Shown here piece after piece: positions 11,531 to 28,304 of a DNA stretch of 52,977 nucleotides. The position numbers and the translations under genes were made by a program. The DNA is taken from positions 1-52,977 of the IMG/VR virus record IMGVR_UViG_3300048917_000597, one strand, 5' to 3'. Position 1 is the first letter of the stretch. Every line of letters starts with the position of its first letter. Under the pieces are notes generated by a model. The model was given only the letters and a program-made list of their open reading frames with translations, was not told the DNA's origin and made no database searches. Source of the stretch: a virus.

Positions 11531-13537
11531 TCAGGCGCTTGCTGGCAGAACTGTAGGGGCGGCTGCCTCTACAGGTGCAACTGTTGGAGCACTTGTTGGC
11601 GAACCACTATTACTTCCCGGCTCCATCACACCTAGCTTCTGGAGCAACAGGCTCATGTTCTCCGCGAGCTGGGCCTGGCCAGCCTGCAGATGCTGGATCG
11701 CGGCACTGTTCATCTCGAGCTCGAGCTCGTTGCCGGAGGACATTCCCTCGATGCGACCCTCGAGGTCAGCGATGCGCTGGTCACGGGCCGACACCTCCTC
11801 GGTGTCGCCGTTCTTCCAGAGCAGGCCGAGCTCCTTGGCCGAGGCCGAGCCGGACAGCTCGATCTGCTTCTGGACGATGTAGGCCATGGCCCGCACCGCC
11901 TGCTGCATCATCTGCTGGTCACCGCTGTTGGCGATCGCCGGCATGGACTGGCTGAGCGGGATGAACAGCTGGTTCAGGATCCGCAGCTGCTTCTCGTCCT
12001 CGAGCTCGGTCAGGGATCCGGGGACGCAGCGGACGTAGTACTCGGTGGCCATGTCGCTGAAGTCCAGCTTCAGCGTGCCATCGTCGTCGAAGTCCTCCGG
12101 CGCCACTCCGGCCTCGAGCAGCTTCATGCGGGTGTCGCCGCTGGGCTGTACCTTCTGGACGCCCTTGAGCTCCTGGAAGTAGATGGTCAGCGCGTAGGAG
12201 CAGTAGTGGCTGAAGAAGGCTTCGATCGCCTTCTGGTAGTTGTTCGTGGTGATGTCGACCAGGGCGGTCTGAGCGTCCACACCCTGAGGTGTGTTGCTCA
12301 TGCCCTGGGCGTTGCCGGTGCCACCGCCAGCAGCCATCGCCATCTGCGGGTCGGCGCTTCCGACGAGGCCGACCATCGAGCCGAGGTTGTCCCGGCTGAT
12401 CTGGCTGTACTGCATCAGCGTCTGCGTGTTCACCTCGAACGCCTCGACCTTGGCGTTGGGGTTCGAGATCTGCGTGAACTTGCCGGGGCTCAGGTTCGGG
12501 ATCGAGTTGACGGTGCCGTAGCCGATGATGCTCGGGTTGATGTTGCGATACCAGAGCTTCATCGCACCGTTGAGCATCAGGTCCTGGAAGTCCTGGCGGC
12601 CGACGAGCAGCTCGACCTGGGACTTGCCGAGCGGCTGCTGGCTGTCCTTCTCGAGCACGAGGAAGTGGACGGGGTGCTGCTTGAGCGGGTGCTTGTTCTT
12701 CTCGATCCGGAGCAGCACCTTGGTGCTCTCGTGGAAGGTGAGGAACGGCTCGCCGGTGTCGGTGTAGAGGGTGATGATCTCGTAGCCCTCGGGGATCTGG
12801 TGGTGCTTCTTGGTCTGGTGGTCGACCGACTGCTGCTCGCGAGCACGCGGCGGGTTCTTCACCATCAGCCGCAGCGCCGCCGTGTCCCAGCCGGGCGCCT
12901 CGTCACGGATCAGTGCCATCGCCTCACCCTTGGTGAGATAGCGCCGGACGAACACCGAGGTGGCCAGGCGCACGTCCTTGCAGCCGGGCTCGGGGAACAC
13001 GTCGCGGTAGTGGATCGTGTCGTACTTCATGTACCAGGCGCCCTTGGCATCCTCGAGCAGCACCGGCAGCACGCAGTCGAACCCGAGCGTCAGCGCGGTC
13101 TTCGTGCTGGCAAACAGGTTCTGCTGCATGTCGTTGCTGTAGAGGTCGGAGCCGATGACCTTGGTGGTCAGCACGTGCCGGCTGAAGATGCCCTTCAGCG
13201 AGTCGTCGTCGAACTTGGAGACGACCTCGACGTTGGGCGCGTTCTGCACGAGGTTCCGGGCGATGCGCCGCACCAGGCCGGCGGTCTCGCCCGAGCTGAT
13301 GTTGGGCAGGTCCGGCTTCGGGGAGATGACCTCGCCGTCGGCCAGCTTCTCCAACGTCTCGTAGCGGGAGACGCGCATGTCCATCTCGCGCTTGAAGCGG
13401 TTGTACATGTGGTACACGTGGTCAGCGCAGGGCGCCATGGTCCGGAACTCGAGGCTCCCGTCACGCGGGTCGATGGTCCGGGAGTCGTACCACTGATCGA
13501 AGTCAGTGATGGGCTCATGCCCCGTCATTACTGCCAC
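11531..13537 (-). CDS. Portal protein
   Basis: 668 aa. GTG 13537 lies 8 nt after GAGGAAGG (alternative ATG 13528, TAATG junction), overlapping the giant ORF stop. The N-terminal ..NISSGETAGLVRRIARNLVQNAPN.. resembles the recalled T7 gp8-type portal N-terminal segment. The C-terminus is coiled-coil/acidic, and the gene lies directly upstream of the capsid gene. Confidence 0.8.
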   Translation of the reverse strand: MAVMTGHEPITDFDQWYDSRTIDPRDGSLEFRTMAPCADHVYHMYNRFKREMDMRVSRYETLEKLADGEVISPKPDLPNISSGETAGLVRRIARNLVQNAPNVEVVSKFDDDSLKGIFSRHVLTTKVIGSDLYSNDMQQNLFASTKTALTLGFDCVLPVLLEDAKGAWYMKYDTIHYRDVFPEPGCKDVRLATSVFVRRYLTKGEAMALIRDEAPGWDTAALRLMVKNPPRAREQQSVDHQTKKHHQIPEGYEIITLYTDTGEPFLTFHESTKVLLRIEKNKHPLKQHPVHFLVLEKDSQQPLGKSQVELLVGRQDFQDLMLNGAMKLWYRNINPSIIGYGTVNSIPNLSPGKFTQISNPNAKVEAFEVNTQTLMQYSQISRDNLGSMVGLVGSADPQMAMAAGGGTGNAQGMSNTPQGVDAQTALVDITTNNYQKAIEAFFSHYCSYALTIYFQELKGVQKVQPSGDTRMKLLEAGVAPEDFDDDGTLKLDFSDMATEYYVRCVPGSLTELEDEKQLRILNQLFIPLSQSMPAIANSGDQQMMQQAVRAMAYIVQKQIELSGSASAKELGLLWKNGDTEEVSARDQRIADLEGRIEGMSSGNELELEMNSAAIQHLQAGQAQLAENMSLLLQKLGVMEPGSNSGSPTSAPTVAPVEAAAPTVLPASA

Positions 13538-16500
13538 TGCTTCAGCCTTCCTCGCTCAGACCAGACTCTCTCACGCCGGACGTCTGCACGCCGGATGATC
13601 GGGTTCGTCGTGTTGATGAATGGGATGGAGTCGCCGTACGGAGCAATGGCGTGGGGAGGTGCGTACATCTTGTTGTAGTTCGGGTAGCCGCGGCTGGCGT
13701 AGCCACCGCCACCGCCGTAGCTGCGGTGGCCGTAGCCACTGCGGCTGTAACCCGAGGTGCCCTTGTTCTGGTAGGGCGTGTAGGGCGTGTACTGCTGCTT
13801 CGCCGCTTCCTTGATCGCATCCTCGATCGACTTGCCGATCTCGACGTCGGTCGGGGTGTAGCGGCTGTCATCGACGAGCTCGAGAGCTCGCATGCCGGTG
13901 TTGATCCGGTTGATGTAGTCGGTGGTGTTCAGGCGGCTGTCGGTGCCGGTGGAGCCCTTCTGGCCCGGGAAGCCCTGCTCGGAGGTGTAGAGCCGCTTCA
14001 CGGGCTGGATGCCGAGGGCGGTCATCAGGTTGCCGCGGGTGATGCCGGTGGCCCACGGCCGACCGTCAGGGCCCATCACGTAGGTGGTGTTGAGCTGGTT
14101 GTACGTGGCCATCGGCTGGTAGCTGATGTTCTTCGAGAAGAGGATGTCACCGAGGCCCTGGACCGAGGGGTCGGACGTTGGCCCGTACCAGAGCCGCTTC
14201 ATGCGGGCGGTGGCCTTGGTCTGGTCGAGGCCCATGTCGACGCCCTCTTGGATCAGCTCCTTCGTCCACTCCTTCGCGATCTCATCGCGCATGGTCATCG
14301 GGACGTAGATGCCGGCCAGGCTCGGGCTGTCGAGGGTGACGCTGTTCTTCATGATGCCCCAGTACACGGCGCGGGCACCGGCCTTGGTCAGCGCCTCGCG
14401 GCCAGCCTTGTCGATCACCGACAACGGCTCGACCGCGCCCTTCTGCTCCATGTACTTCTCGTGGGCGATCTTGTCGAGGTTGTTGTAGAGGTCCCAGTCC
14501 TTGGTGCGCATGGCCTGGCCCTTGAGGGCGTAGCGAATCTCGTCCTCGGTGATGAGCGGCTGGCCGCCCTGGTCGCCAGAGATCTTGCGGACCAGGCCCT
14601 CGACCTCCTCCTTGGTGGAGGGAGTCTTCGGGACCTCCTGGGTCTTGACCGGCATGTTCTTGCGGTAGTAGTCGTTCTGTCCGCCGGTCAGGCCGGTGAA
14701 CAGCGACATCGCGGTGGCCAGCGTGAAGCGGTTCTCGGTCAGCGCGTGCAACGTGCCGGACGCCGTGGAGCGGCCGAGGTAGCCCATCACGAGCTGGCCG
14801 GTCTCCGGGTCGACGTGCGGGGTCAGCGCAGTGTCCTGGCCGTACGGCTCGCCGACGATGTCCTTCTGGATCGTGCCGTCGCTGTCGGTCTGCGGCAGCT
14901 TGTACGGGTCACGGTCGTAGGCGTCCCAGCTGGTGTAGAGCTGGTTGACGAACGAGTTCTCGAAGAGCATCCGCTCGTACACACCGACGCCGTTGGTCAG
15001 CAGGGCCGCGGCCTTGACCATGTTGTGCGGCCCGCCGAGCGCAGCCTCGTCGTCGGCCATCGAGGCGAACTCGTGGGCGGTCTCGACCGCGTCGGACCAC
15101 ATCATCGTGTTGATCAGCGGGAACGAGCCGACGGCATCCTGGAAGCCCCAGGTGACCTGCTTGAAGTCGCCGGTCTCGTAGAAGCGCTCCATGCCGAGGA
15201 TCGGGCTGACGAACTGCTTGAGCGTCCAGTTCAGCCCGGCCATCGACCGGACGCCACCGGGCGCACTCGGGTCGCCGACCTGGAAGTAGGAGCCGAGACC
15301 GAACGGCAGCGAGTCGAGGAAGATCGAGTCGCTGTTGCGGAAGTCGTTCTCGACGGCGCGCGGGTCGTAGACGAACGGTGCACCCTGCAGCTTCGCCATC
15401 CGCCGGCGCTTCTTGGTCTCGTCGTCCTCACCGGACAGGCCGAGGCCACCGGCCATCATGCCCGCCATGAACAGGCCGGTGTGGGTGAGGCCGCCACGGA
15501 TGAAGGACCGGGACAGGTCGACACCCTCGAGGACGGTCGACATGTCGAAGTTGGCCTCGTCGTCGGGAGTGATCTCCTCGCCGTTGGCCTTGGCCTGCAG
15601 CCGGGACCAGAACGTCACCGGGTGCTTCAGCGCGTTCGTGCGGCCGTGCAGCACGGCGGCGGTGAAGTCGCTCATGCCCTGCATGCCGGTGATGGTGGTC
15701 ATCACGTTGAAGGCGTAGTTGGAGAACAGCAGCGGCATCTTCAGCAGCACGGTGCCGAGGAACGAGGTGGCGCTGTTGGTCGACTCGGACAGCGGCTCGT
15801 AGATCCCGCGCAGCGCCAGTGACAGCGGCGTCGCCTTGAGCGAGCGGAACTGCGCGATCGCGTTGGTGCCGGCCAGGTGGAGCTCGGGCGCGTTCTTCTG
15901 CAGCCACTGAGGATCCATCTGGAGGTTGTCCATCAGTGAGTCGATGGTGAGGTTGTGCTCGCCCGGCGAGAACGCGACCTCGTCCATGACGGCCTCGAAG
16001 TAGCGGCGGGCCAGGGTGTCGGACCGCATGCCCCACGTGGGGTCCTGCATCTTGGCGCCGAACTTGGCGTAGTTCTCGAGCCACTTCTCGACCTTGCCGA
16101 TGCCGTGCATCGACGGGCGCAGGTACATCAGGTCGCGGTAGACCATGGCCTTGAAGTCGTTACGCTGGCCGAGGACGGCGTAGACCTCCTTGGCCCGCTT
16201 GATCTGGTCGGGGCTGTAGCGGGCGGTGATGCCGAACTGCTCGGCGTACTGGCCGAGGCCGGTCTCGCTCAGCTTGGCCTCAGCCATCGCGAGCTTGCCC
16301 TGCGTGCTGTGGCCGACCAGCAGGTTCGCGGCACGGTCGAGGGTGCCGCGAACCCACTGCTCAGGTCCCATGGAGAACCACAGCGCGGGGTTGATCATGG
16401 CGGTGCCGACCCGGAGGTTGATCAGCATCCGCGCCAGGGCGTTGGTGTTCGTCGACATGTCGATGAACTTCTGCCCGTTCTTGCGCAGGTCCTTGACCGT

Positions 16501-19500
16501 GATGTCGAGCGGCATCGGGACGCCGTTCTCCTTGCGCCACTGGCGCATGGCCTCGCGGCGCTTGGCGATCACGGCGGTCGGAGCGTGCTTGGAGGTCTGC
16601 GGACCAGACACCCAGTTCTCGCCGGTGAGGTCGCCCATCGTGGCGCGGGTCGTGTCGAGCACGATCGGGTCACGGGTGAGCCGGTTCATCACATCGGAGA
16701 CCGAGGAGCGCAGCTGGATGTAGTCGTCGTTGGTCTGCGGGTCCAGCAGGAACATGGAGATCCGCGAGTCCATCGAGACCGGCAGGTTCAACAGCGACTC
16801 AGTCGCGGCCTGGTAGGTGTGCATGTGGCCGTCGAGCGCCAGCAGGAAGGCGGAGTCGAAGAGGTTGTCGCTGGTGAGCGCGCCACCGAGCGAGATCTCG
16901 ACGTAGTCGTCCCAGGTCTTGGCGATCTGAGACTTGGCCTCGAGCGAGGTGCGCAGAGCGAACGGCGTCAGCTTGTTCTGGTTCTCGGTGAAGATGATGC
17001 GCAGGTCGTTGACGTGCATCAGCGGGACCATGCCGCTGATCGTCGGCAGGTAGCCGTCCTTGACGTTGGCCAGCATGTCGTCGAGCGCGAGCAGCGCGTT
17101 CTTCTGCGTGATGCCGCGGCTGACCTCTGCGTCGGCGTCCATCGAGCTGGGCTGGCCGAGCAGCTGGCGGACCCAGAAGTCCACCATCGGTGCGTAGGAG
17201 TCGCGCAGGCCGAGCGCATGCACGACCTGGAGCCGCTTCGCCTTGTAGGAGTTGCGGCCGGCCTGGTCCCAGCCGTTGATGTCGTCGACCGGGATCTCCT
17301 GGCGGTACTGCACCATGGCGTCACGACCGTTGTGACGGCGAGCTGCCTCAGCCGGCATGTCGCGGCGCCAGCGGGTGCCGGCGTCGGCGTCGGCCAGGCG
17401 GTTCATCAGCCGCCAGACACCGCCGTCGACGACGTCCTCGTCGAAGCGCTCGAGGCCCTTGCCCTCGGTGAAGACCCTGGTCTTCGCCAGGTCACCGGCG
17501 TACGTGGTCTGAGCGCCGGTGGCGAGGTAGGCGATGGCCGCGCTGTGCGAGCTGACGGCGCCGTCCTGCATCTCGGAGAAGGCCATGCCGTTCTTGACCG
17601 GGTTGTCGCCGGAGGAGTGGACCTCGGCGATCTGCAGCCAGCCGGACAGGTTCTTCGTTGTGTCACCGGTGCCGGGTGTGGACTTGGCCGGCGCCACAGC
17701 GGCAGCGAACGCAGCGCCCTCAGCGGAGAGCACGTCGCTGTGGCGCGGCATCTCATAGCCGCTGTCGGTGGAGAGCGCCTCGGCGTAGCGCATCAGGTCA
17801 CGCGCGATGCCCTGCTTCTTCCACTTGTCGAGGATGTCGACGCTGATGATCTCGCCGTCGTTGGCGTCGTACCAGAAGTGGCCCATCGGCCACCGCTCGC
17901 CTTCCTTGTCGACGCGGAGCTTGACGATGGGGCGCTCGACACCGTCGACCATGTGGGCCTCGGTCGAGACGCCGACGGTCATGCCTCGGTCGGTGAACAG
18001 GCGCTCGGCCTCGTTCAGCGACATGACACCGGACTTGGCCGGCGTGCCCATGCGGATCTCGAGAGTGAAGTCTTCGGCCAGGCTGTAGCCCTCGCCGGGG
18101 TTGAACGGGCTGTTGTTGAACTGCTTGTTGAAGCGGCGGTTCATCTCCTTGCGCAGCTCGGAGCCGTGCGGGGCGAAGTCGAAGACCTGGGTGAACAGCC
18201 GCGGCATGAGGATCGACTGGCTGTCGGGCGTGGCGTTGTTGTCGTTGAAGCCGCCGGACTTCAGCACGTCGTCGACGCGGGCACCGGGCGTCATCAGGTA
18301 GAGCACCAGGGCCCGGGTGATCTGGGCCTCGGGGCTCTGCGGGTCTGCGATCTCGGAGACCCAGTCCTCGGTGGTGAGGTTGGCGCTGGCGTCAGCCACC
18401 GGCTTCAGCATCGCGGAGATCATGGCCGGGAACCGCGAGCTCGTCATCAGCTCGTCAGCGGCCTCGATCGTCAGGCTGTCGCGTCCGGTGGCGATCGCGT
18501 ACAGCAGCGCGCGGGCGTTGGCCGGCGAGGTCTTGAAGACCTTGGCCACGTCGGGCAGGAAGTCAGCACCGAAGATCGCGATGGCGTTGCGGTGGTTGTT
18601 GATGATCCCGTCGAACGCCTCCTTGCTGATCGTGTCGTGCTGGCTGACGATCATGTCGATGCCCCAGCCGGGGAAGAACCCGTGGTCGGGAAGCTTGATG
18701 CGCTCGCCCATCGGCGTGAGCATGTACTTCATCCCGTTCCACTCGACGACCTTCTTGTCGCCGAACTGCTGGAACGGAATGTTCATCTCCATGCTGAGGC
18801 CGTAGCCCGAGCGCGGGTTCACCGAGACGACCGTGCCGGTGTGGACGGTGGCCGCGTCCTCCGGGTCGGTCGGGAAGACCGCGATGTTGTGGGCGTCGGC
18901 CTTGTCCGGCATCGCGATCGACGTGAGCTTCTTGATCACGTCGTCCTTCGGCGCCTTGTAGCCGTGCCGGTACAGCACCACGTTGTGGTGGTTGTCGGTC
19001 AGCGGGATCATGTCGCCGATCTCGAACTGCTCACCCGGTGTCGGCAGCAGCGAGCCGGTGTTGGAGTCGATCCGCGCCATCAGCCGAGTCCAGGCGTGGT
19101 CGAAGTCGTCGTCGGCCTGCTGACGCTGCTTGCCCTTGAGGTGGCCGTTGGCCTGCTCCTTGAGGAGCTTCTGGCCGGCGGCGTCGTCGAGGCCCTTGAG
19201 GTGGGCGGCGACCTTGTCGACCTGGCTGGTGTTGCCGTACGACTCGACCGGCACGTTGAACCGGTAGAGGAAGTTGGACGGGATCAGGTCGACGCTGACA
19301 CCGATGGCGGACAGCCGCTCGTTGTTGGGCCGGACCCAGGCCGAGTTCTCCTCGATGTCCTTGTCGGCCACGTGAAGGATGGCGACCATGCTGCGCTTGG
19401 AGATGCCGCGCATCTCGGTCAGCGTGGAGACTCGGGCCCGCTGGTTCGCGTAGCGGCTGACCGAGGTGTTCGGCTGCATCACGTGGCCGGAGCCGGCCAT

Positions 19501-22500: not shown

Positions 22501-25500
22501 CAGGATGGCCCGGGCCAGCGGCCGGGTGTCGGCGTTCTTCAGCAGCTTGATCATCTGCTTGGCGTCGGGCTGCGTCCACTCCACGGTGCGACCCTCGTCG
22601 TCCATGGTGCGGACGCCGTCCTTCGCCAGCAGCGCCATGTTGCCCGACACGGCGTCGAGGTTGCTGGACGTCATCATCGCCATCAGCCGCTCGTAGTTCA
22701 CGGTGTAGCCGCGGGCGTCGCGCAGCGCGTCGAACATCCCGTTGAGCCGGACGTTCTCAGCGGTCTTGCCCTTGGTGTGGGACTGGGCGTTGAGCCCGCG
22801 CACCGCACCGATCGTCTGCAGGAGCATCTGCTGGCTGCCGACACCGACGATGTAGTCGTTGCTGTGCTCGATCGCCAGCACGAACTGCCGGTGGAGCTCC
22901 TCGTCACCGGCGTCGACCGCGACACTCGGGTCGTCGAGGTGGGCCAGCCACCGCTCGACCGCGCTGATCACCTGGAAGTCGGAGGCGATCGACGCCTTCT
23001 CGGTCGCCAGGTCGGAGACCAGGTTGTCGGCGGCCACTCGGAGACTGGAGATCGCCTCACGGAGCTCGGCCCCGTCGAGTGCGGTGGTCCAGCCGCCGTG
23101 GGCCTTGTCCTGGTCGAACTCCGCGACGTCGTCGACCCAGGCGGTCAGCGGCGCCTGGTTGCCCCGGACGCCCGGCGTCATGTTGACCCAGCGCATGAAC
23201 TCGCTCAGGTCGGTGGACTTCTCCATCTGCATGATGAACTGCTCGAGCATGAGGCCCTTGTCAGGGCTGGAGGACAGCGCGGAGACGATCCGGTGGATCC
23301 GGCGCGGCAGCCGGATGTTGTTGCGGCTGGCCTCACCCTCGGAGCCTTCGGACTTGCCCTGGTTGATGCCGAGGTAGTTGATCTCCGCACGCAGGATGTT
23401 GCGCCAGTAGTACATCTCCGCGTGCTTGGAGTCGGAGATCGCGAACATGTCGTAGACCCAGTTGGCGATGTGGAGGTTGTTCTCCTCGTCGACCCGGTAG
23501 ACCGAGTTGACCGCGGCGTCCGGGATCAGATCCAGCAGCTTGCGGGCGAAGTCGGGGTTCGCATCGAGCATCCGCTCGACGGTCTCGGCCGCGGTCTCGC
23601 CGTGCTTGCGCGGGGAGATCGCGATGAACTTGTTGAGCGCCGTCACGATCCGCTCGTGCGCGTTCTGGAACGAGTCGGAGATCCGGTCGCTGCGCTCGGC
23701 GAACTCGCCGGTCAGCTTGCCGGCCTTGTCGATCGTGAGCCGGTGGTGGCCGACCGCGAGGATCGAGTCGACCACCGCGCGGTAGGCGGTGATCTCTCCG
23801 GCCCGCATCTCCTCGAGACCGTAGGGGATGTTCTTGCTGCGCTTGCGACCGAGGTACTCGGCCTCACCCCGCAGCTCGGAGTCCATCAGGTAGCGGGTCT
23901 GCTCGGACGCACCGACGTAGGCGCGGGTGAACTGCTCGACGGTGAGCTGGGGGCCGAACACGTTGGCCGCCTCACCGAGCAGCGCGAACATCTGCTGGCT
24001 GCCGACGACCTCGACGAACGCGCGCTCAGCGTTGACCGGGTGGTCGGACCCACCGGGCCGGGTCATCGACTCGAGCGTGGCGTACCGGGCCTGCAGCTCC
24101 GGGCTCACCGCCAGGATGCTGGCCTTCTCGACACGGTCCTCGGCGATCGAGCGCTTCAGCAGCATCTGTGCCAGCGTGATCGTCTTCTTGCCGCCGACGA
24201 TGTTGCCCTTCGAGTCGTAGTCCCAGTCCGTGACGGCGGTGTTCGCCAGCACGGCCAGGGTCTCGGAGGCGTTGACGGTGTAGCCGAGCTTCGCGCTGAT
24301 CTGCTCGGCGCTGGACTCCGACAGCGCCAGGAGCTGGGCGTAGACCCGGGTGGTGATGTCGTCCTTGCCGCGGATGTCGTCGAGCGCGCTACGGGTGAGG
24401 CGCTGGCCCCACTCCTCGTAGATCGCGGCGAGCTCGGACAGCCGCTCCTGCGTGGGAGCCTGGTCGGCGCTGAGCACCGAAGCGAGCTGGCTGGCGTAGT
24501 GGAGCTTCTGGTCCTTGCGGAACATCGTGTCGCCCGCAGTGATCAGCCCGACCTCCTGGCCGATCGTGGCCGACCTGGCAGCGCGGCGCTCGCGCACCTC
24601 GTTGCTCTGCTGGTTCGGTGCCACGACGTCGGAGTTGGGCTGGGGGCTGATCATCGGGCGGTTGGCGGCGTAGTTGCCCTGGAACTCCTGGAAGCTGGTG
24701 CGCACCAGCTGGTCGATCCAGAGCCACTCGTTGCTGAGGTTGCCGTGGGCGAACTCGGTGATCTGTGTGCCGGCCTCGGACGCGAGCCCATCGAGCAGCG
24801 CGCTGCGTGCGCTCTTGACGTTGGACTCGACCGCGTCGTTGAAGTTGCGGAGGATCCGGTCGAGCACGACCTGGTCCACGACGTTGGCGTAGCGCCGGCG
24901 GATGCTCGCACCGATCTGCGTCAGCGTGGCGCTCGCGTACTTCTGGATCGCCTGGTTGCGACCAGTGAGCGCCTCGGACATGTAGTCGGTGATGAACTCC
25001 TCGTACTTGGGAGCGCCGACGTTCACGTGCTCACCGGCGCCGACGAAGTTCTGGCCGCTACGCCCGTTGGCGTACGACGCATCGTCGAGCACGAGCTGGG
25101 CGAGCTGGCGCACCTTGTCGCCGTCGTAGTCGCCACGCAGTGCAGGCAGCAGCGCGTGGGAGATCTGCACCACGTTGTCGCTTGAGTAGAGCGTGAGCTG
25201 CTCGGACGCCTGCGGCACGAGGATGTGGTAGGAGCCCGAGTCGGCGTGCGGGTCGCGGGCGAACACCAGGGACACGGCCTTGGCCAGATCGAGCTTGTCC
25301 TGGTCCGACATCGGCTCGGCCACGCCCTCGATGTCGACGCGGTCGAAGGCGTCCTGCAGGAACTGGTTCATGCTGCGGACCTCGGCGACGATCTCGGCCG
25401 GTGTCACACCGTCGGCGTGGATCCGCTGCAGCCGCTGCTCGATGTCGTCGTTGACGCGCTGGCTCCACACCAGCACGCGCTCGGTGTTGTCGAGCAGCAC

Positions 25501-27846
25501 CTGGGCCCGCGCGCCCTTGTCGATCAGGTCCTGGTTCGTCGGGTCGGTGGCCAGCGCCTTGGTGGCCTCGTCGACCTGGGCCTTGAGGTAGTCGCGCTGG
25601 ATGGCCAGACCGCGACCGTGGTTCAGGAGGTTGATCGCCAGCTGGCGGGCGCTGCTCCCCACGGCATCACCGCGCCAGCTGGCGTCCTCGAGCTGGATCA
25701 TCGCGAACGCACCATCGGTACGGCGGGTTCCGTGCTCGAGGTCTGCGGCCAGCTTGTTCTGGTAGGCGTCGTGCACCTTCTCGATGTGGACGACCGAGCC
25801 GGTCTGCCGCATCGCCATGTCGGAGCTGGCCTGCTTGTAGGCCGCCTTGAGACTCGAGGTCTCGATGGCGGAGAGCGCCGAGAGGGAGCGCTGCTGCACC
25901 TCGGTCATCGCGTTCCACTCGTCACGGCTGAGCTTCGCGCCACCGGTGCGCATCTCGTAGGCCGCGGCAGCCTGGCTGTAGGCCTGGGTCGCCGGGTCGA
26001 CCGCGTGGGCCTGGAACCCCAGCCCCATGCCGGCACCGGCCGCGAACCCGTAGAGCGCGCTGGTCCCGATGTCGGACAGGGAGATCGACTGGTTGTGGCT
26101 CAGGTTGTCGAAGACCGACTGCAGGCCCTCCTCGTAGCCCTCACCCATCGCGTTCACCACGATGGAGGTGAGGCGGCTGTCGCCCTGTGCCATGGACCGG
26201 GCCGCGCGGTAGAAGTCGTCGGCGCTGTAGGCACCGCCACGCTTGGCGGCCATCCGCATCCCGATGATCCGCGCGCTCACGTTGCCGAGCTGCTCGGACG
26301 GCGCCAGCAGCGCGAGGGTGGCCTTCTTGCCGGTGACGTTGCCCGCCTCGTCCAACGTCCACCGGACACCGACGTGCTCGAACTCGCGACCGGCCTCGGC
26401 ACCGGTGGCGTTCGCAGCGCCCTTGCGGAACATGTTCAGCTTGTTGCCGAACCGGCCGACGGCACCAAGGCCACCCTCGTAGACGGTCTGCTCGCCAGCA
26501 GCCCGCAGGCCGGAGTCGACCTTGCCGGCCAGGCCGTGGACCATCCCGAGCTGGACCGCGTCGATGCCGACCTTGCCGATGCCCGCAGCACCGGAGACCA
26601 GGTCGACGTGACCCTTGTCGTCGCGGAAGATGTTGTCGAACCCGCCGCGTGTGTAGTCGAAGGACTTGCCACCGGTGGCCGCGAGCTCGGTGACCTCGCC
26701 ACCGATCGTGCCCGCCATCTGCGTGGTGTAGAGCAGACGACCGACCGGGCTGCCGAACTGCAGCACGGAGTCGGCGACCGTGGCCCCGACGTCGGCCACC
26801 TGGAGCCACTTGCTCACCGTCCGGTCGCCCTTGTCGTCGAGCCGGTAGAACTCGGACTGACCGTCACCGGCATGCCCGAGATCCGCGACGCCCTGCGTCA
26901 CGTTGGAGATCGGGGACAGCAGCCGTCCACCGAAGCCGGACCACTGCTGCACCGCCGTGCCGACACCGGCGAGTGTGGAGTTCTCCTTGAAGCTCATGGA
27001 CGTGATCTCGGCAGCACGCGCGGCCTGCTGGTCGAGGGTGTCGCGGTTCAGCCAGGCACCGACGCCACCGACCGCGGAGCCGCCGAGGAACGCGACGCTG
27101 GTGGGGATCGCGTCCAGCGGCCCGAGCCAGGCGCCACCGACCGCGGTCACACCAGCAGCCAGCGTGCCGCCGGCCAGCGCGCCACCACCGACGATCGCAG
27201 CCTGGGACTTGCCCTCGGCGATCTCACCAGTGCGCCGGTCGACGTTCTCGTTGAACTCCTTGCTGGCCAGCATCTTGGGCACCTCGACGTTGTTCGTCTC
27301 GTGTGCCTGCTGGACCGCCGAGCTCAGAGCGGTGGTGGGATCGGAGTCGGCGTAGATGTGGGCCTTGGTCTTCGCGTCGAAGAGGATGTCGGCCATCATC
27401 AGGTTCGCAGTGGCCGGCTGGTTCTTGAACTCGTGGAAGACGTTGCCGACCTTCTTGCCGTTGTCGTAGATGTCTCCGAAGTGGAAGTCCTGGCCACTGC
27501 CGTCCGTCGCGGTGTGGTCCCAGGTCACGACACCCGTGGCGAACTGCGGCGTCTGGAACTGCTCGTTCAGCTTGCCCGCTTCGCCGGCCGCCTTGTTCGC
27601 CTCCATGGCGCGGGCCCAGAAGTCGGAGTCCCAGCCGTTGTTGGTGCCCTCGCGGTTCTGGCCGGTGTACCAGCTCTTCGCGGTGTAGGTCGTGGGATCG
27701 CCCGGATCGCTGCTCTGTCCGGGCGGCGCGTACGGGTCGTAGAGCCCGGAGTCCTGACGAGCCTTCGCGTCCTGCTGCAGACCGCTGGGGTTGGCGGGGT
27801 TGTTCGCCTGCTGGTTCGCGTACGGATCGTGCAGCTGCTGGGGCAC
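13528..27846 (-). CDS. Giant multidomain virion/ejection protein (4772 aa from GTG 27846; ORF open to 27951) with RNA-polymerase-like double-psi beta-barrel signatures
   Basis: This is a single uninterrupted ORF. GTG 27846 lies 7 nt after GAGGAGG. The N-terminus has Gly-zipper hydrophobic segments. GDYDGDKV is at ORF residues 940-947 (DYDGD = 941-945), preceded by RVDIEG and ARDP. GDKKVVEWNGMKYML starts at residue 3064. A GNAT-like stretch lies near residue 3378. A second hydrophobic Gly-rich segment lies near residue 4160. The C-terminal tail is Gly/Tyr/Ser/Arg-rich. Amino-acid composition is realistic, unlike the antisense shadow ORFs. Confidence 0.9.
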   Translation of the reverse strand: MPQQLHDPYANQQANNPANPSGLQQDAKARQDSGLYDPYAPPGQSSDPGDPTTYTAKSWYTGQNREGTNNGWDSDFWARAMEANKAAGEAGKLNEQFQTPQFATGVVTWDHTATDGSGQDFHFGDIYDNGKKVGNVFHEFKNQPATANLMMADILFDAKTKAHIYADSDPTTALSSAVQQAHETNNVEVPKMLASKEFNENVDRRTGEIAEGKSQAAIVGGGALAGGTLAAGVTAVGGAWLGPLDAIPTSVAFLGGSAVGGVGAWLNRDTLDQQAARAAEITSMSFKENSTLAGVGTAVQQWSGFGGRLLSPISNVTQGVADLGHAGDGQSEFYRLDDKGDRTVSKWLQVADVGATVADSVLQFGSPVGRLLYTTQMAGTIGGEVTELAATGGKSFDYTRGGFDNIFRDDKGHVDLVSGAAGIGKVGIDAVQLGMVHGLAGKVDSGLRAAGEQTVYEGGLGAVGRFGNKLNMFRKGAANATGAEAGREFEHVGVRWTLDEAGNVTGKKATLALLAPSEQLGNVSARIIGMRMAAKRGGAYSADDFYRAARSMAQGDSRLTSIVVNAMGEGYEEGLQSVFDNLSHNQSISLSDIGTSALYGFAAGAGMGLGFQAHAVDPATQAYSQAAAAYEMRTGGAKLSRDEWNAMTEVQQRSLSALSAIETSSLKAAYKQASSDMAMRQTGSVVHIEKVHDAYQNKLAADLEHGTRRTDGAFAMIQLEDASWRGDAVGSSARQLAINLLNHGRGLAIQRDYLKAQVDEATKALATDPTNQDLIDKGARAQVLLDNTERVLVWSQRVNDDIEQRLQRIHADGVTPAEIVAEVRSMNQFLQDAFDRVDIEGVAEPMSDQDKLDLAKAVSLVFARDPHADSGSYHILVPQASEQLTLYSSDNVVQISHALLPALRGDYDGDKVRQLAQLVLDDASYANGRSGQNFVGAGEHVNVGAPKYEEFITDYMSEALTGRNQAIQKYASATLTQIGASIRRRYANVVDQVVLDRILRNFNDAVESNVKSARSALLDGLASEAGTQITEFAHGNLSNEWLWIDQLVRTSFQEFQGNYAANRPMISPQPNSDVVAPNQQSNEVRERRAARSATIGQEVGLITAGDTMFRKDQKLHYASQLASVLSADQAPTQERLSELAAIYEEWGQRLTRSALDDIRGKDDITTRVYAQLLALSESSAEQISAKLGYTVNASETLAVLANTAVTDWDYDSKGNIVGGKKTITLAQMLLKRSIAEDRVEKASILAVSPELQARYATLESMTRPGGSDHPVNAERAFVEVVGSQQMFALLGEAANVFGPQLTVEQFTRAYVGASEQTRYLMDSELRGEAEYLGRKRSKNIPYGLEEMRAGEITAYRAVVDSILAVGHHRLTIDKAGKLTGEFAERSDRISDSFQNAHERIVTALNKFIAISPRKHGETAAETVERMLDANPDFARKLLDLIPDAAVNSVYRVDEENNLHIANWVYDMFAISDSKHAEMYYWRNILRAEINYLGINQGKSEGSEGEASRNNIRLPRRIHRIVSALSSSPDKGLMLEQFIMQMEKSTDLSEFMRWVNMTPGVRGNQAPLTAWVDDVAEFDQDKAHGGWTTALDGAELREAISSLRVAADNLVSDLATEKASIASDFQVISAVERWLAHLDDPSVAVDAGDEELHRQFVLAIEHSNDYIVGVGSQQMLLQTIGAVRGLNAQSHTKGKTAENVRLNGMFDALRDARGYTVNYERLMAMMTSSNLDAVSGNMALLAKDGVRTMDDEGRTVEWTQPDAKQMIKLLKNADTRPLARAILFPQVLEANAAGYLSNQLLVGKDLKSLLNGNSHKELFPKNDRLSYDAAMRYLMLVESSASKFGGNLAHFGVQRAVNDLVIARTSAADHQLTNYEIEQLTRDAYYDFAVALQSASSLAMTPTTAGVDPLRAVHRLVGLQQRNMLVADNLGIKAEDRALLGPMIQDLLDTRAIQLEDAKREAAESIDPALAGDPATVAQLQKEHAALQADYDRFVERVDLLKSDGVAGRAISMFNIKKGEADQSAAKKDAIHSFIQSHLAWVDSMMASKKTLDKYTYQILDSARTGQPDLSDDEWAELSRAVIAVYITDATTMTAPGISTPPFPDVSTSQGVYDARYFDASFSYIADPLLDQTSPLIQAGMEIAARAGRTNTEVPQQVVEVLGRTLFKEHSLGSWTPDTARASMEANTRLDSAAAEPAISQAGVSPKLQATIAAAMRRSYTDPGEAYLSKTSLTWFNLTNGSDFDEVDVTMPDGTNNPTPRAMLNNRFARSVVATFVDPETGEVTQEDLFKYDQNLGVPFWSVEEASTTGYQAVHLSRIQRTVEFLADAKKVKPDSIGVMVEFFHPESQPSDGEFANNLFFEGTSFKLPGDSANGLLETLWFRPGGISPTAQAQALDASKLGMPALQNFTGPDKATVESIERTWADDFAGMLRAKARILTETDLGFGTLDPEYYNAHLKGLKIRHFVRGTDANGSPVLWSAEQVMEFQRNNPPDADGNRAPLPFNDAALWIPSDDVLRSMLGETGDQGVKRLFGDQLTPDITQVKRYRGVTPDMLGRFIKGVSGETKTLDETRIANRARQSMLTVRGQMSEAERNRFDARIKFYAEARIQSDLDRSEMMQRGTGGFDPSRNLQAAVARGEDALHAEDIAFDWIAAGIPFIGMRDPQETMLGRMMIQNVDAMLEADGFRTGWVYREGWSDAKMPEGQLNEHSLGNDRKGFRVSPGDIVVVELDSFSGNRETAKKRLDYLADRGAIIVLASPDGTGDMRAELSQYLEGHGLGYSRMAGSGHVMQPNTSVSRYANQRARVSTLTEMRGISKRSMVAILHVADKDIEENSAWVRPNNERLSAIGVSVDLIPSNFLYRFNVPVESYGNTSQVDKVAAHLKGLDDAAGQKLLKEQANGHLKGKQRQQADDDFDHAWTRLMARIDSNTGSLLPTPGEQFEIGDMIPLTDNHHNVVLYRHGYKAPKDDVIKKLTSIAMPDKADAHNIAVFPTDPEDAATVHTGTVVSVNPRSGYGLSMEMNIPFQQFGDKKVVEWNGMKYMLTPMGERIKLPDHGFFPGWGIDMIVSQHDTISKEAFDGIINNHRNAIAIFGADFLPDVAKVFKTSPANARALLYAIATGRDSLTIEAADELMTSSRFPAMISAMLKPVADASANLTTEDWVSEIADPQSPEAQITRALVLYLMTPGARVDDVLKSGGFNDNNATPDSQSILMPRLFTQVFDFAPHGSELRKEMNRRFNKQFNNSPFNPGEGYSLAEDFTLEIRMGTPAKSGVMSLNEAERLFTDRGMTVGVSTEAHMVDGVERPIVKLRVDKEGERWPMGHFWYDANDGEIISVDILDKWKKQGIARDLMRYAEALSTDSGYEMPRHSDVLSAEGAAFAAAVAPAKSTPGTGDTTKNLSGWLQIAEVHSSGDNPVKNGMAFSEMQDGAVSSHSAAIAYLATGAQTTYAGDLAKTRVFTEGKGLERFDEDVVDGGVWRLMNRLADADAGTRWRRDMPAEAARRHNGRDAMVQYRQEIPVDDINGWDQAGRNSYKAKRLQVVHALGLRDSYAPMVDFWVRQLLGQPSSMDADAEVSRGITQKNALLALDDMLANVKDGYLPTISGMVPLMHVNDLRIIFTENQNKLTPFALRTSLEAKSQIAKTWDDYVEISLGGALTSDNLFDSAFLLALDGHMHTYQAATESLLNLPVSMDSRISMFLLDPQTNDDYIQLRSSVSDVMNRLTRDPIVLDTTRATMGDLTGENWVSGPQTSKHAPTAVIAKRREAMRQWRKENGVPMPLDITVKDLRKNGQKFIDMSTNTNALARMLINLRVGTAMINPALWFSMGPEQWVRGTLDRAANLLVGHSTQGKLAMAEAKLSETGLGQYAEQFGITARYSPDQIKRAKEVYAVLGQRNDFKAMVYRDLMYLRPSMHGIGKVEKWLENYAKFGAKMQDPTWGMRSDTLARRYFEAVMDEVAFSPGEHNLTIDSLMDNLQMDPQWLQKNAPELHLAGTNAIAQFRSLKATPLSLALRGIYEPLSESTNSATSFLGTVLLKMPLLFSNYAFNVMTTITGMQGMSDFTAAVLHGRTNALKHPVTFWSRLQAKANGEEITPDDEANFDMSTVLEGVDLSRSFIRGGLTHTGLFMAGMMAGGLGLSGEDDETKKRRRMAKLQGAPFVYDPRAVENDFRNSDSIFLDSLPFGLGSYFQVGDPSAPGGVRSMAGLNWTLKQFVSPILGMERFYETGDFKQVTWGFQDAVGSFPLINTMMWSDAVETAHEFASMADDEAALGGPHNMVKAAALLTNGVGVYERMLFENSFVNQLYTSWDAYDRDPYKLPQTDSDGTIQKDIVGEPYGQDTALTPHVDPETGQLVMGYLGRSTASGTLHALTENRFTLATAMSLFTGLTGGQNDYYRKNMPVKTQEVPKTPSTKEEVEGLVRKISGDQGGQPLITEDEIRYALKGQAMRTKDWDLYNNLDKIAHEKYMEQKGAVEPLSVIDKAGREALTKAGARAVYWGIMKNSVTLDSPSLAGIYVPMTMRDEIAKEWTKELIQEGVDMGLDQTKATARMKRLWYGPTSDPSVQGLGDILFSKNISYQPMATYNQLNTTYVMGPDGRPWATGITRGNLMTALGIQPVKRLYTSEQGFPGQKGSTGTDSRLNTTDYINRINTGMRALELVDDSRYTPTDVEIGKSIEDAIKEAAKQQYTPYTPYQNKGTSGYSRSGYGHRSYGGGGGYASRGYPNYNKMYAPPHAIAPYGDSIPFINTTNPIIRRADVRRERVWSERGRLKQWQ

Positions 27847-28089
27847 CGCTCTACCTCCTCGACCGGAGCAGTGGCGGCTCCTGAGGCGTGAGCGTACACA
27901 CACTTCGCGCCAACCGGTGCCACGACCCGGCGGGTCGTCACGTCCTTCCACCTAGCTTCTGGTGGCGCTTCTCGAAGCGTCAGCCAAACGGGGGTGCCCG
28001 ATTGGCGCTTTCCCCTCGGTCGGCATCGTCTGGAAGACCGAACCGAGTGCTTCAGACCAATCGAGTGCTTCGTTTGGCACGGATGTTGG

Positions 28090-28260
28090 GATAAGCAAAA
28101 AAGTTTCCGTCCAGTACGAATATATACATATAAAACAAACAACACATACTATACCCCCTATACATATATATGTATGGTATATAGGATCCATATTCGATAT
28201 GTAATAGGGATAACGTTGTGGAGTTTGTGTCAATCTGATTTTTGGATTGGTATGTGGATA
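28090..28260. promoter_or_regulatory. AT-rich island (candidate origin/DNA-unwinding element, early promoter cluster or genome-end region)
   Basis: There is an abrupt local drop in GC in an otherwise GC-rich genome (..gcaaaaaagtttccgtccagtacgaatatatacatataaaacaaacaacacatactata..). It contains the perfect palindrome ATACATATATATGTAT at 28160-28175 and lies between the divergent giant gene and the first plus-strand gene. Confidence 0.6.
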
Positions 28261-28304
28261 TCGGTCTAGCCGTAGCAGGCTTAGGACGTAAGGAGATGGT
28301 GGCC

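Follow-up and report, generated by a model that had tools for sequence, protein, structure and literature searches.

The gene considered here belongs to a family of giant genes described from the phages of cluster EK and from Burro, where the giant gene was called the phages' most striking feature and held to be probably virion-associated, with its role given as unclear (Jacobs-Sera et al. 2020, PMC7302621). The same study describes the genomes of these phages as circularly permuted, gives a transmembrane prediction for the Burro protein and reports from Burro virions a band of ~250 kDa, which exceeds in size every other protein predicted from the Burro genes (PMC7302621). The window, by which is meant the whole 52,977-nucleotide stretch of viral DNA that was analysed, carries a member of this family, which is found in Microbacterium phages of clusters EK and EM and in Arthrobacter podoviruses; the original prediction had pointed to giant genes with no assigned function in actinobacterial podoviruses, which matches the published account. 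An exhaustive search gave 187 clusters of the family at 50% identity, over 100 of which have 4,370-4,898 aa, and in 58 phage records the homologue ends at the portal gene. Whilst the gene family itself is already known, the function proposed for it here, that of the two halves of an RNA polymerase (RNAP), is a new result.

On the minus strand, positions 13528-27951 form a single unbroken open reading frame with a maximal length of 4,807 aa. The likely start of the gene is GTG 27846, near which the N-termini of homologues align, and the protein made from it would have a mass of 522.8 kDa and a pI of 5.3, with the gene taking up 27% of the window (Table 1). The three codon positions have a GC of 0.63, 0.44 and 0.94 in that order, with GC3 at 0.86-0.96 in every complete 300-aa tile and falling to 0.75 solely in the last 8-codon remainder, and when the 14.4 kb of the gene were shuffled 200 times the longest stop-free run had a mean of 308 codons and a maximum of 479. 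The antisense ORFs that overlap the gene (723-1,821 aa) have a GC1 of 0.91-0.95 and ~0% K/N/I/F and are therefore shadow ORFs. The stop codon overlaps the portal start (GTG 13537, which GGAAGG precedes by 8 nt), the two genes sharing 10 nt exactly as they do in Araxxi, Burro and MissAmericana. It had been predicted that the frame is uninterrupted, that it probably starts at the GTG behind GAGGAGG, that its TAA overlaps the portal start and that its composition is protein-like where that of the antisense frames is not, and all of this holds.

Table 1. Positions of the giant gene, its neighbour and the features of its protein in the window
Feature	Residues (aa)	Position	Strand	Basis or content
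Portal gene		11531..13537	(-)	Homology to annotated portal genes of relatives
Giant CDS	4,772 in all	13528..27846	(-)	GTG 27846 to TAA 13528-13530; full-length homologues
Shine-Dalgarno-like GAGGAGG		27854..27860	(-)	7 nt 5' of GTG 27846
Gly-zipper hydrophobic hairpin	215-265	27052..27204	(-)	Two TM-like segments (hydropathy), conserved G/A pattern
Conserved block	510-610	26017..26319	(-)	LAPSE, NxxGEGxEExxQ, GxxxGxGM
RNAP beta'-like module	~720-1610	23017..25689	(-)	AlphaFold model and Foldseek
beta'-type double-psi beta-barrel core	858-915	25102..25275	(-)	R864-x-P866...G871-S872...P878 to DxDGD loop; hhalign, strand pattern
DYDGD	906-910	25117..25131	(-)	Candidate Mg2+-binding catalytic triad (DxDGD)
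AATxGQT...G...F-R1110-x-F-Q-K-L-H-Y motif	1092-1118	24493..24573	(-)	Conserved, low-confidence loop
RNAP beta/Rpb2-like module	~2410-3280	18007..20619	(-)	AlphaFold model and Foldseek
beta-type barrel core	2940-3080	18607..19029	(-)	Conserved G2944-D, R2960, G2962, G3016, K3031, G3038, K3040, P3053, K3075
Window-protein-only insert	3262-3400	17647..18063	(-)	Holds GNAT motif-A-like VDILDKWKKQGIARDLMRYAEA
C-terminal domain	4100-4772	13531..15549	(-)	Conservation profile; many invariant residues
Hydrophobic Gly-rich segment, then acidic, Arg-rich cluster	4112-4150	15397..15513	(-)	Hydropathy, alignment
Gly/Tyr/Arg-rich low-complexity stretch	4693-4725	13672..13770	(-)	Sequence composition
Basic tail at extreme C terminus	4745-4772	13531..13614	(-)	NPIIRRAxIRRERxxSERGRLKQWQ

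The first of the two RNAP-like regions resembles the beta' subunit. An AlphaFold model of aa 420-1610, built on a shallow alignment of 33 sequences, has a pLDDT of 77, with aa ~720-1060 mostly at least 90 (80-95), and its best 50 PDB matches in Foldseek are all bacterial RNAP beta' (probability 0.8-1.0, best E=4.9e-4). In a viral structure library the same model finds family members first and then mainly the large subunits of RNAPs from giant viruses and poxviruses. With hhalign the barrel core falls on E. coli beta' 416-469 (NRAPTLHR...NADFDGD; P=2.6e-4, where the beta control gave 0.4) and also on the DFDGD region of P23-45 gp96 (P=1.6e-3). Conservation was counted in 42 aligned sequences, the window protein and 41 relatives with identity down to 23%, and all 42 carry D906, D908, G909, D910, R864 and P866. 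The motif at aa 1092-1118 keeps R1110 in 42/42, Y1117 in 38/42 and H1116 in 31/42 and lies largely in a stretch (aa ~1099-1125) with a pLDDT below 50; it is a candidate trigger-loop-like element, which we take to resemble beta' GEPGTQLTMRTFH. Ahead of the module, the block at aa 510-610 is mostly helical in the model, with a small beta-sheet before it at aa ~487-509, and P516 and S517 of LAPSE and E569, E572 and E573 of NxxGEGxEExxQ are invariant.

The second region has the character of the beta subunit. The model of aa 2300-3430, built on a shallow alignment of 19 sequences, reaches a pLDDT of mostly ~70-90 over aa ~2410-3280, with short low-confidence loops, and its best 20 PDB matches belong without exception to the second-largest subunit of RNAPs (bacterial beta, Rpb2, NRPD2), the lowest E-value being 2e-3 and the highest probability 0.98. 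Below these 20 nearly all matches have a probability of 0.1 or less, one more being a plastid RNAP chain at 0.10. Within the barrel core K3040 and K3075 are shared by all 42 sequences and K3031 by all but one of them (41/42), and in the model K3031 and K3040 each begin a beta-strand, the two strands being adjacent. No signal to rpoB was obtained from this region at the sequence level with hhalign.

Foldseek gives modest E-values (5e-4 to 1e-2) and low TM-scores (0.10-0.16), and the match between these models and RNAP is one of local fold and topology rather than global superposition; with sequence profiles alone no match to PDB sequences was significant. Both RNAP-like barrel signatures of the original prediction, which had also proposed a domain-wise Foldseek search, are borne out in models that match beta' and beta/Rpb2 respectively and in the invariance of the catalytic-site residues. 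Because the matches are to beta' only and to beta/Rpb2 only, and because of these invariant residues, the giant protein is probably a virion-carried, single-chain, two-barrel DNA-dependent RNAP of the cellular type, joined in one chain to modules that serve capsid incorporation and ejection. With both halves of a cellular-type RNAP in the giant gene, the phage therefore probably delivers a transcription enzyme of its own to the host. A Pfam search found no other RNAP among the remaining genes of the window, and the annotation of Araxxi lists none.

It might be argued that the protein is purely structural, an ejection or internal-core protein like those of T7 (gp14/15/16) or P22, in which the RNAP modules are dead relics and the host RNAP transcribes the early genes. 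The hydrophobic segments, the portal-adjacent position, the size and the avoidance of cysteine would all fit an ejected channel-former, and neither a candidate promoter for the giant-gene RNAP nor a phage-specific promoter motif common to the relatives was found. Catalytically dead relics usually lose their catalytic residues, however, whereas here the DxDGD triad and the two fully conserved barrel lysines persist whilst the remainder drifts, an invariance typical of retained catalysis, and a sigma70-like consensus occurs 0 times in the divergent intergenic region against 1.0 expected, which is weak evidence; a purely structural role is thus considered unlikely. A two-barrel polymerase of other activity (an RNA-dependent RNA polymerase, primase-like, or a PolD-like DNA polymerase) with a role in replication or anti-defence could also be envisaged, as PolD is a member of the superfamily and so is QDE-1, an enzyme that works both as RdRP and as DdRP. 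This is quite improbable given that the structural matches are all to beta' and beta of DNA-dependent RNAP, that the motif is the RNAP-type DxDGD and that the gene is part of the virion operon in a phage that already has a family A DNA polymerase and a primase-polymerase (Pfam).

Homologues in Araxxi, Arete and MissAmericana are labelled tail tape measure protein (TMP) in RefSeq/GenBank, and great length, helical regions and hydrophobic segments are common in TMPs, with that of P23-45 carrying an RNAP. As a general rule a TMP specifies ~0.15 nm of tail per residue, and one of 4,772 aa would mean a tail of ~0.7 um, but the characterised relatives (Burro, ArMaWen, Akoni and further phages of EK/EM) are podoviruses in which the tail is shorter than 10 nm. 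The gene also stands upstream of portal and capsid and not between tail-tube/chaperone and distal tail genes, and the authors who described such relatives say explicitly that they could identify no tape measure gene. The claim that the genome lacks a TMP is thus reasonable, the database labels being at odds with the podoviral form of the relatives, and there is very little chance that they are right. Lastly, GC-rich genomes yield long spurious ORFs, and in one related metagenomic contig (L010) the giant gene is in pieces, so that genes fused by sequencing errors or a shadow ORF might be suspected. The portal gene of L010 is fragmented too, which suggests indel errors in that contig, whilst the high GC3 over the full frame, the mirror-image composition of the antisense ORFs and over 100 independent homologues that are full-length at 4.4-4.9 kaa, including dozens from finished phage genomes, leave an artefact of assembly or annotation a negligible likelihood.

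Not all of the protein is common to the family. The segment bearing the insert at aa 3262-3400 has 181 aa in the window protein against 46-79 aa in the 41 relatives, and the insert, at a pLDDT of ~24, is in effect unmodelled. The GNAT-like stretch that had been noticed here does give a match to Pfam Acetyltransf_1, but this is sub-threshold (E=0.013, 16.2 bits, cutoff 20.7), searches of PDB, phage and NCBIfam gave no match to the insert, and a GNAT domain in this insert of the window protein is only putative.

The predicted Gly-zipper segments are present at aa 215-265 and aa ~4112-4137 (nt ~15400-15513), as is the Gly/Tyr-rich tail. By hydropathy the segment at aa 215-265 is kept in 10/10 phage homologues and may serve to insert into the membrane or to form a channel, and after the one at aa ~4112-4137 comes a GLxGEDEExRRRRR cluster that is nearly invariant. 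This cluster belongs to the C-terminal domain, which is the most conserved part of the family and for which metagenomes hold 31 relatives at 29-61% identity; no other 30 residues of the protein are as well conserved as its extreme C-terminal tail (conservation 0.82). The C-terminal domain may serve capsid or portal incorporation, or ejection.

Virion association has been reported for Burro only among the relatives, as the ~250 kDa band, which may be a product of the giant gene. The computed mass of aa 1-~2300 of the window protein is 249 kDa and that of the beta-like remainder 273 kDa. The protein has no cysteine at all (P~9e-15 against 0.68% Cys in the other proteins of the window), as is true of 32/42 family members. 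With its hydrophobic segments, its cysteine avoidance and a gene that heads the virion operon and overlaps portal, a role in ejection or at the membrane is plausible by analogy. As to the fused ejection polyprotein carrying enzymes that had been proposed, its enzymatic part is supported by folds and invariant residues and its ejection is plausible, but for processing the hint is the Burro band alone.

We infer RNA synthesis, packaging in the window phage and ejection, which may take place as follows. Late in infection the giant gene, at the head of the virion operon, would be translated in coupling with portal, as their arrangement suggests, and the protein would join the procapsid near the portal, probably via the C-terminal domain and basic tail. 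It may be cleaved approximately in half, as judged from the Burro band size, into beta'-like and beta-like parts. Exit through portal and short tail would be in an extended, partly unfolded form, by analogy with N4 gp50, the cargo proteins of crAss-like phages and T7 gp14-16, and the near-total absence of cysteine in the family is consistent with this; in crAss001 cargo partly unfolds during ejection. The N-terminal hairpin, and possibly aa ~4115-4137, could insert in the host membrane and form or anchor a DNA conduit. In the host cytoplasm a single active centre would form from the beta'-like barrel, with its DxDGD at aa 906-910, and the beta-like barrel, with K3031, K3040 and K3075, and could transcribe the early plus-strand block 29333->44977, which codes for replication proteins and holds no other RNAP; the catalysis, template and promoters are all presumed. 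As the relatives are circularly permuted, a T7-like scheme in which early genes enter first and RNAP pulls the DNA in is not automatic.

The barrels lie in the order beta' then beta, ~2,100 residues apart, and to our knowledge the order is the opposite in every characterised single-chain two-barrel RNAP. There are precedents for the packaging of a giant two-barrel RNAP in the virion, namely gp66 of the crAss-like phage phi14:2 and gp96 of the Thermus phage P23-45, the latter an experimentally proven virion RNAP.

The open reading frame on the minus strand at 13528..27951 is a real coding frame, running for 4,807 codons without interruption as the original prediction had it, and this is confirmed by the ORF listing, the GC3 profile and shuffling. 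GC at codon positions 1/2/3 is 0.63/0.44/0.94, with GC3 between 0.86 and 0.96 in each complete 300-codon tile and 0.75 only in the last 8-codon remainder, and shuffling the same 14.4 kb 200 times gave longest stop-free runs with a mean of 308 codons and a maximum of 479. Long ORFs of 723-1,821 aa on the opposite strand have a GC1 of 0.91-0.95 and are essentially without K, N, I and F, a mirror-image composition that makes them shadow ORFs, and so the earlier reading of them as shadows is borne out. The most plausible start, judged from the sequence, is the GTG at 27846 (see table), and homologues align from about this codon onward. From here the product is 4,772 aa with a mass of 522.8 kDa and a pI of 5.3, the 14.3-kb gene taking up 27% of the 52,977-bp window. 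The gene is the first of the virion operon, lying immediately upstream of the portal gene and coupled to it, with a 10-nt overlap between its stop and the portal start that is also found in Araxxi, Burro and MissAmericana. It is divergent from the plus-strand replication block, with a 1.4-kb intergenic region between them, and the layout in relatives is alike, with the giant gene before the portal and divergent from the replication block.

Coordinates of features in and around the giant gene (amino acids numbered from the GTG start)
Feature	Position	Strand	Remark
Start of giant gene, GTG (most plausible)	27846	-	7 nt downstream of GAGGAGG 27854-27860
Stop of giant gene, TAA	13528-13530	-	within start region of portal gene
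Portal start, GTG	13537	-	GGAAGG 8 nt upstream
Insert, ~125 aa	17647-18063 (aa ~3262-3400)	-	only in window protein among 42 aligned
Small ORF, up to 101 aa, helical-looking	28242-28547	+	positional equivalent of Araxxi gene 26
Hairpin, 15-bp stem, then T-run	28554-28597		directly 3' of small ORF

The window's giant gene belongs to the EK/EM-type family of giant virion genes that actinobacterial podoviruses carry. The existence of such a gene is already known and is not new. Jacobs-Sera et al. (PMC7302621) described a highly divergent gene of >13 kbp that encodes >4,400 residues and makes up almost 25% of the genome, with few informative domains and no similarity or shared motifs with the N4 virion RNAP, which agrees with the mention in the original prediction of giant genes without an assigned function in actinobacterial podoviruses. 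Later genome announcements still give the giant gene as 'unknown function'. At the DNA level no close record for the window was found in the phage collection, the sole match being 66 nt. With tblastn both halves of the protein find full-length counterparts in 58 phage records (57 Microbacterium, 1 Arthrobacter), and in every one of them the match terminates at the portal gene. Against the cluster EM phages (Burro, Araxxi, Arete, Casino and others) and Arthrobacter phage MissAmericana 94-98% of both halves is covered at 29-36% identity, with E=0 for the EM phages, and identity goes down to 22% for the homologues of clusters EK2 (Akoni) and EK1 (TinyTimothy). Akoni gp31, TinyTimothy gp28, Burro gp27, Araxxi gp27 and MissAmericana gp30 are full-length true homologues at 22-36% identity; the EK1/EK2 (Eekayvirinae), EM (Burrovirus) and MissAmericana proteins are 4,434-4,494 aa, the window protein being longer. 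The EK/EM homologues have a hydrophobic hairpin, invariant motifs, the portal overlap and the divergent layout in common with the window protein, but do not have its insert of ~125 aa. An alignment of the giant proteins (A1) has 200+ invariant columns.

Most of this large family is metagenomic, and its members vary little in length. When aa 420-1610 were used for an exhaustive HMMER scan, 187 clusters (50% identity) came back at E<=1e-3, with >100 of these being full-length proteins of 4,370-4,898 aa, and the median length in a 42-sequence sample of the family is 4,629 aa. The nearest relatives of the window protein are metagenomic, at 46-49% identity over the searched region of aa 420-1610. 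A word-seeded protein database search with aa 701-1400 gave no match, the same type of search with a 10-sequence profile gave only two N-terminal fragments, and an exact look-up of the window's giant protein in public assemblies returned no identical record.

A beta'-like module of the giant protein lies at aa ~720-1610. It carries the motif DYDGD at aa 906-910, a candidate Mg2+-binding triad, of which D906, D908, G909 and D910 are invariant (42/42) in an alignment that reaches down to 23% identity, as are R864 and P866 ~40 residues upstream of DxDGD. The pattern R-x-P...G-S...P-Q...DxDGD fits that of the beta' double-psi barrel (NRAPTLHRLGIQAFEP...NADFDGD), and with hhalign aa 855-915 of the family fall exactly onto E. 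coli beta' 416-469 (P=2.6e-4, against P=0.4 for a beta control). The same block aligns with the DFDGD region of gp96 from Thermus phage P23-45, a virion RNAP that has been validated by experiment (P=1.6e-3), and this weak but specific local match comes only from the short DxDGD block, with long family blocks giving nothing significant against gp96. An AlphaFold model of aa 420-1610, made with the family alignment, has a mean pLDDT of 77, with aa ~720-1060 mostly >=90 (80-95), and its best 50 Foldseek matches in the PDB are all bacterial RNAP beta' chains (probability 0.8-1.0, E from 4.9e-4, 450-1,138 aligned columns). Among predicted viral structures it matches uncharacterised members of the family and then mostly the large RNAP subunits of giant viruses and poxviruses. 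Long helices are also present downstream of the DxDGD barrel in the model, and a conserved stretch in a low-confidence loop, AATxGQT...G...F-R1110-x-F-Q-K-L-H-Y, in which R1110 is invariant, lies ~200 residues beyond DxDGD. In gp66 of the crAss-like phage phi14:2 the bridge helix lies at ~+170 and the trigger loop at ~+240 residues from its DFDID motif, and the R1110 loop is a possible candidate for a trigger loop. Other fused RNAPs have a beta-like barrel before DxDGD, and aa 480-620 were considered for this role; the idea was rejected, and a beta-like module further downstream preferred, because the model has only a small sheet and helices there and the matches of the N-terminal fragment are all beta'.

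The beta-like module is found much further along the chain, at aa ~2410-3280. Within it the block aa 2940-3080 is constrained at G2944-D, R2960, G2962, G3016, K3031, G3038, K3040 and K3075, with K3040 and K3075 present in 42/42 sequences and K3031 in 41/42. In an AlphaFold model of aa 2300-3430 pLDDT is mostly ~70-90 over aa ~2410-3280, with short low-confidence loops, and each of the best 20 Foldseek matches in the PDB is to the second-largest RNAP subunit (probability up to 0.98), including Streptomyces and Mycobacterium beta, yeast and human Rpb2 and plant NRPD2; below these 20 nearly all matches have a probability <=0.1. K3031, K3040 and K3075 would lie in the active site, judging from strand positions in the model rather than from a superposition. 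No sequence-level support was obtained for the beta-like part. Both AlphaFold models rest on shallow alignments and the Foldseek E-values are modest, and the TM-scores for both modules are low (0.10-0.16), as is expected because the models are multi-domain and the identity is ~10%; it is the specificity of the match lists together with the invariant catalytic signatures that was weighed, and no single score.

On this evidence the giant protein is predicted to hold both halves of the two-barrel RNA polymerase active centre. The RNAP-like barrel signatures that had been noticed in the original prediction are matched by structure, with aa 420-1610 leading to beta' and aa 2300-3430 to beta/Rpb2/NRPD2. 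Unusually, of the two barrels the beta'-like one (aa 858-915) comes first, with the beta-like one (aa 2940-3080) ~2,100 residues further on. The characterised single-chain enzymes QDE-1 and phi14:2 gp66 are arranged as beta-like and then beta'-like, as are the other fused beta-beta' enzymes that are known. Profile searches with the full giant protein (Pfam and PHROGs) and with all ten phage homologues (Pfam) gave nothing significant, NCBIfam gave no match for either folded fragment, and the sequences of the entire PDB, searched with profiles built from each of the two motif regions or from the family as a whole, likewise yielded nothing significant, the best RNAP-related match being AR9 beta' at E~0.5. 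Pfam, run on 20 further proteins of the window, found no second RNA polymerase, and Araxxi has none annotated. A full-text literature search, in which journal coverage is partial and which took in the 23-family compilation of two-barrel RNAPs (supplement of the P23-45 paper), found no RNAP or other function assigned to the EK/EM giant genes.

Other explanations of such a gene have to be considered. The coding statistics and the >100 full-length homologues rule out an assembly artefact. In one metagenomic contig (L010; ENA ERZ25039462 contig_52595, 56 kb) the giant and portal genes are in overlapping pieces of 941/844/1494/481/442 aa, a pattern typical of long-read assembly indel errors and not of natural gene splits, and the portal gene being chopped too indicates such errors. 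The use of metagenomic gene splits as markers of domain boundaries was tried and rejected, since P0014 is cut by the end of its contig and L010 has indel errors. Some RefSeq/GenBank records label homologues as a tape measure protein, yet the gene is upstream of the portal and not between the tail-tube/chaperone and distal tail genes, and the relatives, for which alone a morphology is described (PMC7302621 and PMC8281081), are podoviruses that have tails of <10 nm and for which the authors state that no TMP is identifiable; this explanation is rejected on gene position and on the morphology of these relatives. The homologues in NC_048801 (Araxxi), NC_048860 (Arete) and PQ184795 (MissAmericana) are labelled 'tail length tape measure protein' or 'tape measure protein', which is probably a mistaken annotation that will propagate.

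Against a solely structural ejection protein that carries dead relics of an RNAP stands the fact that the catalytic residues do not vary. A two-barrel enzyme with another activity, such as an RdRP or a PolD-like polymerase, is less likely given the matches obtained and given that separate replication machinery is encoded, the plus-strand block having genes for an AAA ATPase, an SSB-like protein, a PD-(D/E)XK nuclease, a family A DNA polymerase, helicases and a primase-polymerase. A DNA-dependent RNA polymerase of the cellular two-barrel type is therefore the reading preferred here.

Outside the two modules the giant protein has further conserved parts. A Gly-zipper hydrophobic hairpin at aa ~215-265 is present in all ten phage homologues, and in a conserved block at aa 510-610 the residues P516, S517, E569, E572 and E573 are invariant. 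After a further hydrophobic segment at aa ~4115-4137 comes a nearly invariant cluster, acidic at first and then rich in arginine. The best-conserved part is the C-terminal ~670 residues, which end in a Gly/Tyr-rich stretch and then a near-invariant tail, NPIIRRAxIRRERxxSERGRLKQWQ; Gly-zipper segments and a Gly/Tyr-rich tail had been part of the original prediction and are found where it had placed them. The giant protein of the window has no cysteine at all (P~9e-15), and zero cysteines are found in 32/42 family giants of ~4,600 aa (alignment A5), against 0.68% Cys in the other proteins of the window. The insert lies in a segment of 181 aa in the window protein and of 46-79 aa in the other aligned members. 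The GNAT-like stretch of the original prediction falls within this insert. Pfam Acetyltransf_1 gives a sub-threshold match to it at E=0.013 with 16.2 bits against a cutoff of 20.7, which spans only a motif-A-like KKQGIA, and there is no match to it in the PDB, in phages (tblastn) or in NCBIfam. Its AlphaFold pLDDT of ~24 is low because there are no homologues. A GNAT acetyltransferase is thereby a possible reading of the stretch, and the insert may be a recently acquired accessory domain that rides on the ejected protein.

The remainder of the virion operon is also poorly recognised. At E<=1e-3 there is no PHROG match for the portal (11531-13537), the putative capsid protein and most of the tail genes, 10096-11499 being among the virion-operon genes concerned; the only parts that are recognised are the terminase large subunit (46230-47693) and a minor-tail-like C-terminus (1057-2088), with weak matches to unannotated PHROGs at 362-1087. 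With so few matches it is apparent that the virion module of this phage group is very poorly covered by current profile libraries.

The divergent intergenic region that separates the giant gene from the replication block (27952-29332) has features of its own. The 28-30 kb tile that holds it is 55.5% GC, against ~66% in the rest of the window, and the region itself contains 7 terminator-like hairpins where 1.1 are expected, no sigma70-like consensus (0 against 1.0 expected) and no Rfam match. The first early gene is probably the small ORF on the plus strand, which would then have a terminator of its own. At the equivalent place all fetched relatives likewise have ~0.6-1.0 kb that is free of genes. 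Two homologous intergenic elements of ~250 bp are present in the window, at 28897-29165 and 51690-51935 and so 22.8 kb apart, both of which are packed with TGTAGACA(C) units in both orientations. The sequence GTGTAGACA has 6 copies where 0.22 are expected, all of them inside the two elements, and the blocks GTAGACATGTAGACACCCC...TTTGAAACC and GGCCTCTGACCTG..TTATGTGTAGACAC are common to both. The TGTAGACA array motif is absent from the fetched relatives except for one copy in contig L010, and the equivalent gap in the Araxxi record (L001 18512-18778) has an analogous array with a different unit, GGTAACG/CGTTACC. The TGTAGACA arrays are candidate iterons, operators or phage-specific promoters.

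How such a protein would be used can be proposed by analogy with N4 gp50, the crAss-like gp66 with its cargo proteins, and P23-45 gp96. The giant protein would enter the capsid, probably by means of its conserved C-terminal domain, and would later pass out partly unfolded by way of the portal and the short tail, a state in which a chain free of cysteine would be an advantage. The hydrophobic hairpin might then help to form or anchor a membrane conduit, and the refolded enzyme would transcribe the early genes in the cytoplasm. The genomes of relatives are circularly permuted (PMC7302621), thus a T7-like entry of DNA driven by transcription does not follow. A protein of ~250 kDa was found in purified virions of the relative Burro and attributed to gp27 or a processed part of it (PMC7302621), which is about half of the giant protein, and in the window protein aa 1-2300 amount to 249 kDa and the remainder to 273 kDa. 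From this one gel band it is suggested that the protein may be cut, at a point between the modules, into two 'subunits', one beta'-like and one beta-like, and such cleavage would make the reversed order of the barrels irrelevant. It is tentatively proposed, at rather less than an even chance, that the family is an unrecognised lineage of virion-delivered RNAP with a fold nearer to cellular beta'/beta than to the crAss/QDE-1 clade and a permuted beta'-then-beta order, that it may be a polyprotein cut in the capsid into two ~250-kDa 'subunits', and that the same molecule forms or anchors the membrane conduit and transcribes the incoming genome. On this proposal the easily cultured SEA-PHAGES actinophages would provide a system of early transcription in Actinobacteria that is independent of the host RNAP.

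The giant gene has been without an assigned function since 2020, and the two-barrel RNAP reading offers a testable one for a gene that takes up a quarter of the genome in each of at least 58 phage records, applying equally to the metagenomic family of 187 clusters. If true, virion-packaged RNAPs of the cellular type, so far found in crAss-like phages of Bacteroidetes and a Thermus siphovirus, would reach the actinobacterial podoviruses. The occurrence of beta' and then beta in one chain or polyprotein would bear on the evolution of two-barrel polymerases and on exchange between cells and viruses. As the phages and their hosts are cultivable and widely spread in teaching laboratories, tests by rifampicin resistance, proteomics and cryo-EM are straightforward, and a self-contained actinobacterial transcription enzyme could become a tool.

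Among known virion RNAPs, gp50 of N4 (3,500 aa) is packaged in the capsid of a podovirus, injected with the genome and transcribes the early genes, with an N-terminal region for injection, a central polymerase and a C-terminal region for encapsidation. It is a T7-like single-subunit enzyme with a right-hand fold, whereas the giant protein is predicted to be two-barrel and would be a functional analogue; no T7-type RNAP domain was matched in it by Pfam or PHROGs, and it is not N4-like. The 5,002-aa gp96 of P23-45 (Chaban et al., Nat Commun 2024) is a virion RNAP fused to a tape measure, for which the proposed model has the RNAP tethered at the DNA conduit. It is alike in its ~5,000-aa scale, in joining a two-barrel RNAP, predicted in the giant protein, to hydrophobic parts, which in gp96 are membrane-active, and in its FRNPxxxxGG...(x33)...DFDGD, which resembles SR(S/D)Pxxxx GS...DxDGD in the giant protein. 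It differs in being the tape measure of an 800-nm siphovirus tail, the giant protein's relatives being podoviral, and in having its RNAP, 'flat' and clamp-less, within the N-terminal ~1,100 aa, whereas the barrels of the giant protein are far apart; P23-45 also encodes a second, non-virion RNAP, and none is seen in the giant-protein family.

A further known virion RNAP is the 2,180-aa two-barrel gp66 of phi14:2, a crAss-like Cellulophaga phage (Drobysheva et al., Nature 2021), with which the RNAP-associated cargo proteins gp47/49/50 of crAss001 are grouped. Like the giant protein with its predicted barrels, gp66 is very large, has barrels of the beta'-type with DxDxD and of the beta-type, and most of its sequence is without recognisable homologues; it is carried in the virion of a podovirus, ejected with the DNA and transcribes early genes. 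However, gp66 is beta-like and then beta'-like with a ~140-aa connector and DFDID, in contrast to beta' then beta ~2,100 aa apart and DxDGD, there is no detectable sequence similarity, and the hosts are Bacteroidetes and Actinobacteria respectively. Neither a gp66 nor a QDE-1 chain is among the top Foldseek matches listed, canonical multisubunit beta' and beta being the best, and with this, the order and spacing of the barrels and the canonical DxDGD, the giant protein is not in the crAss gp66/QDE-1 clade. Cellular RNAP has separate subunits, whereas here a single chain in reversed order, at ~10% identity in structural alignments and without alpha, omega and sigma partners, has its modules set amid ~2,500 further residues. 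It is nevertheless the cellular beta' and beta subunits that are the best structural matches, with R-x-P...DxDGD common to one barrel and conserved lysines to the other.
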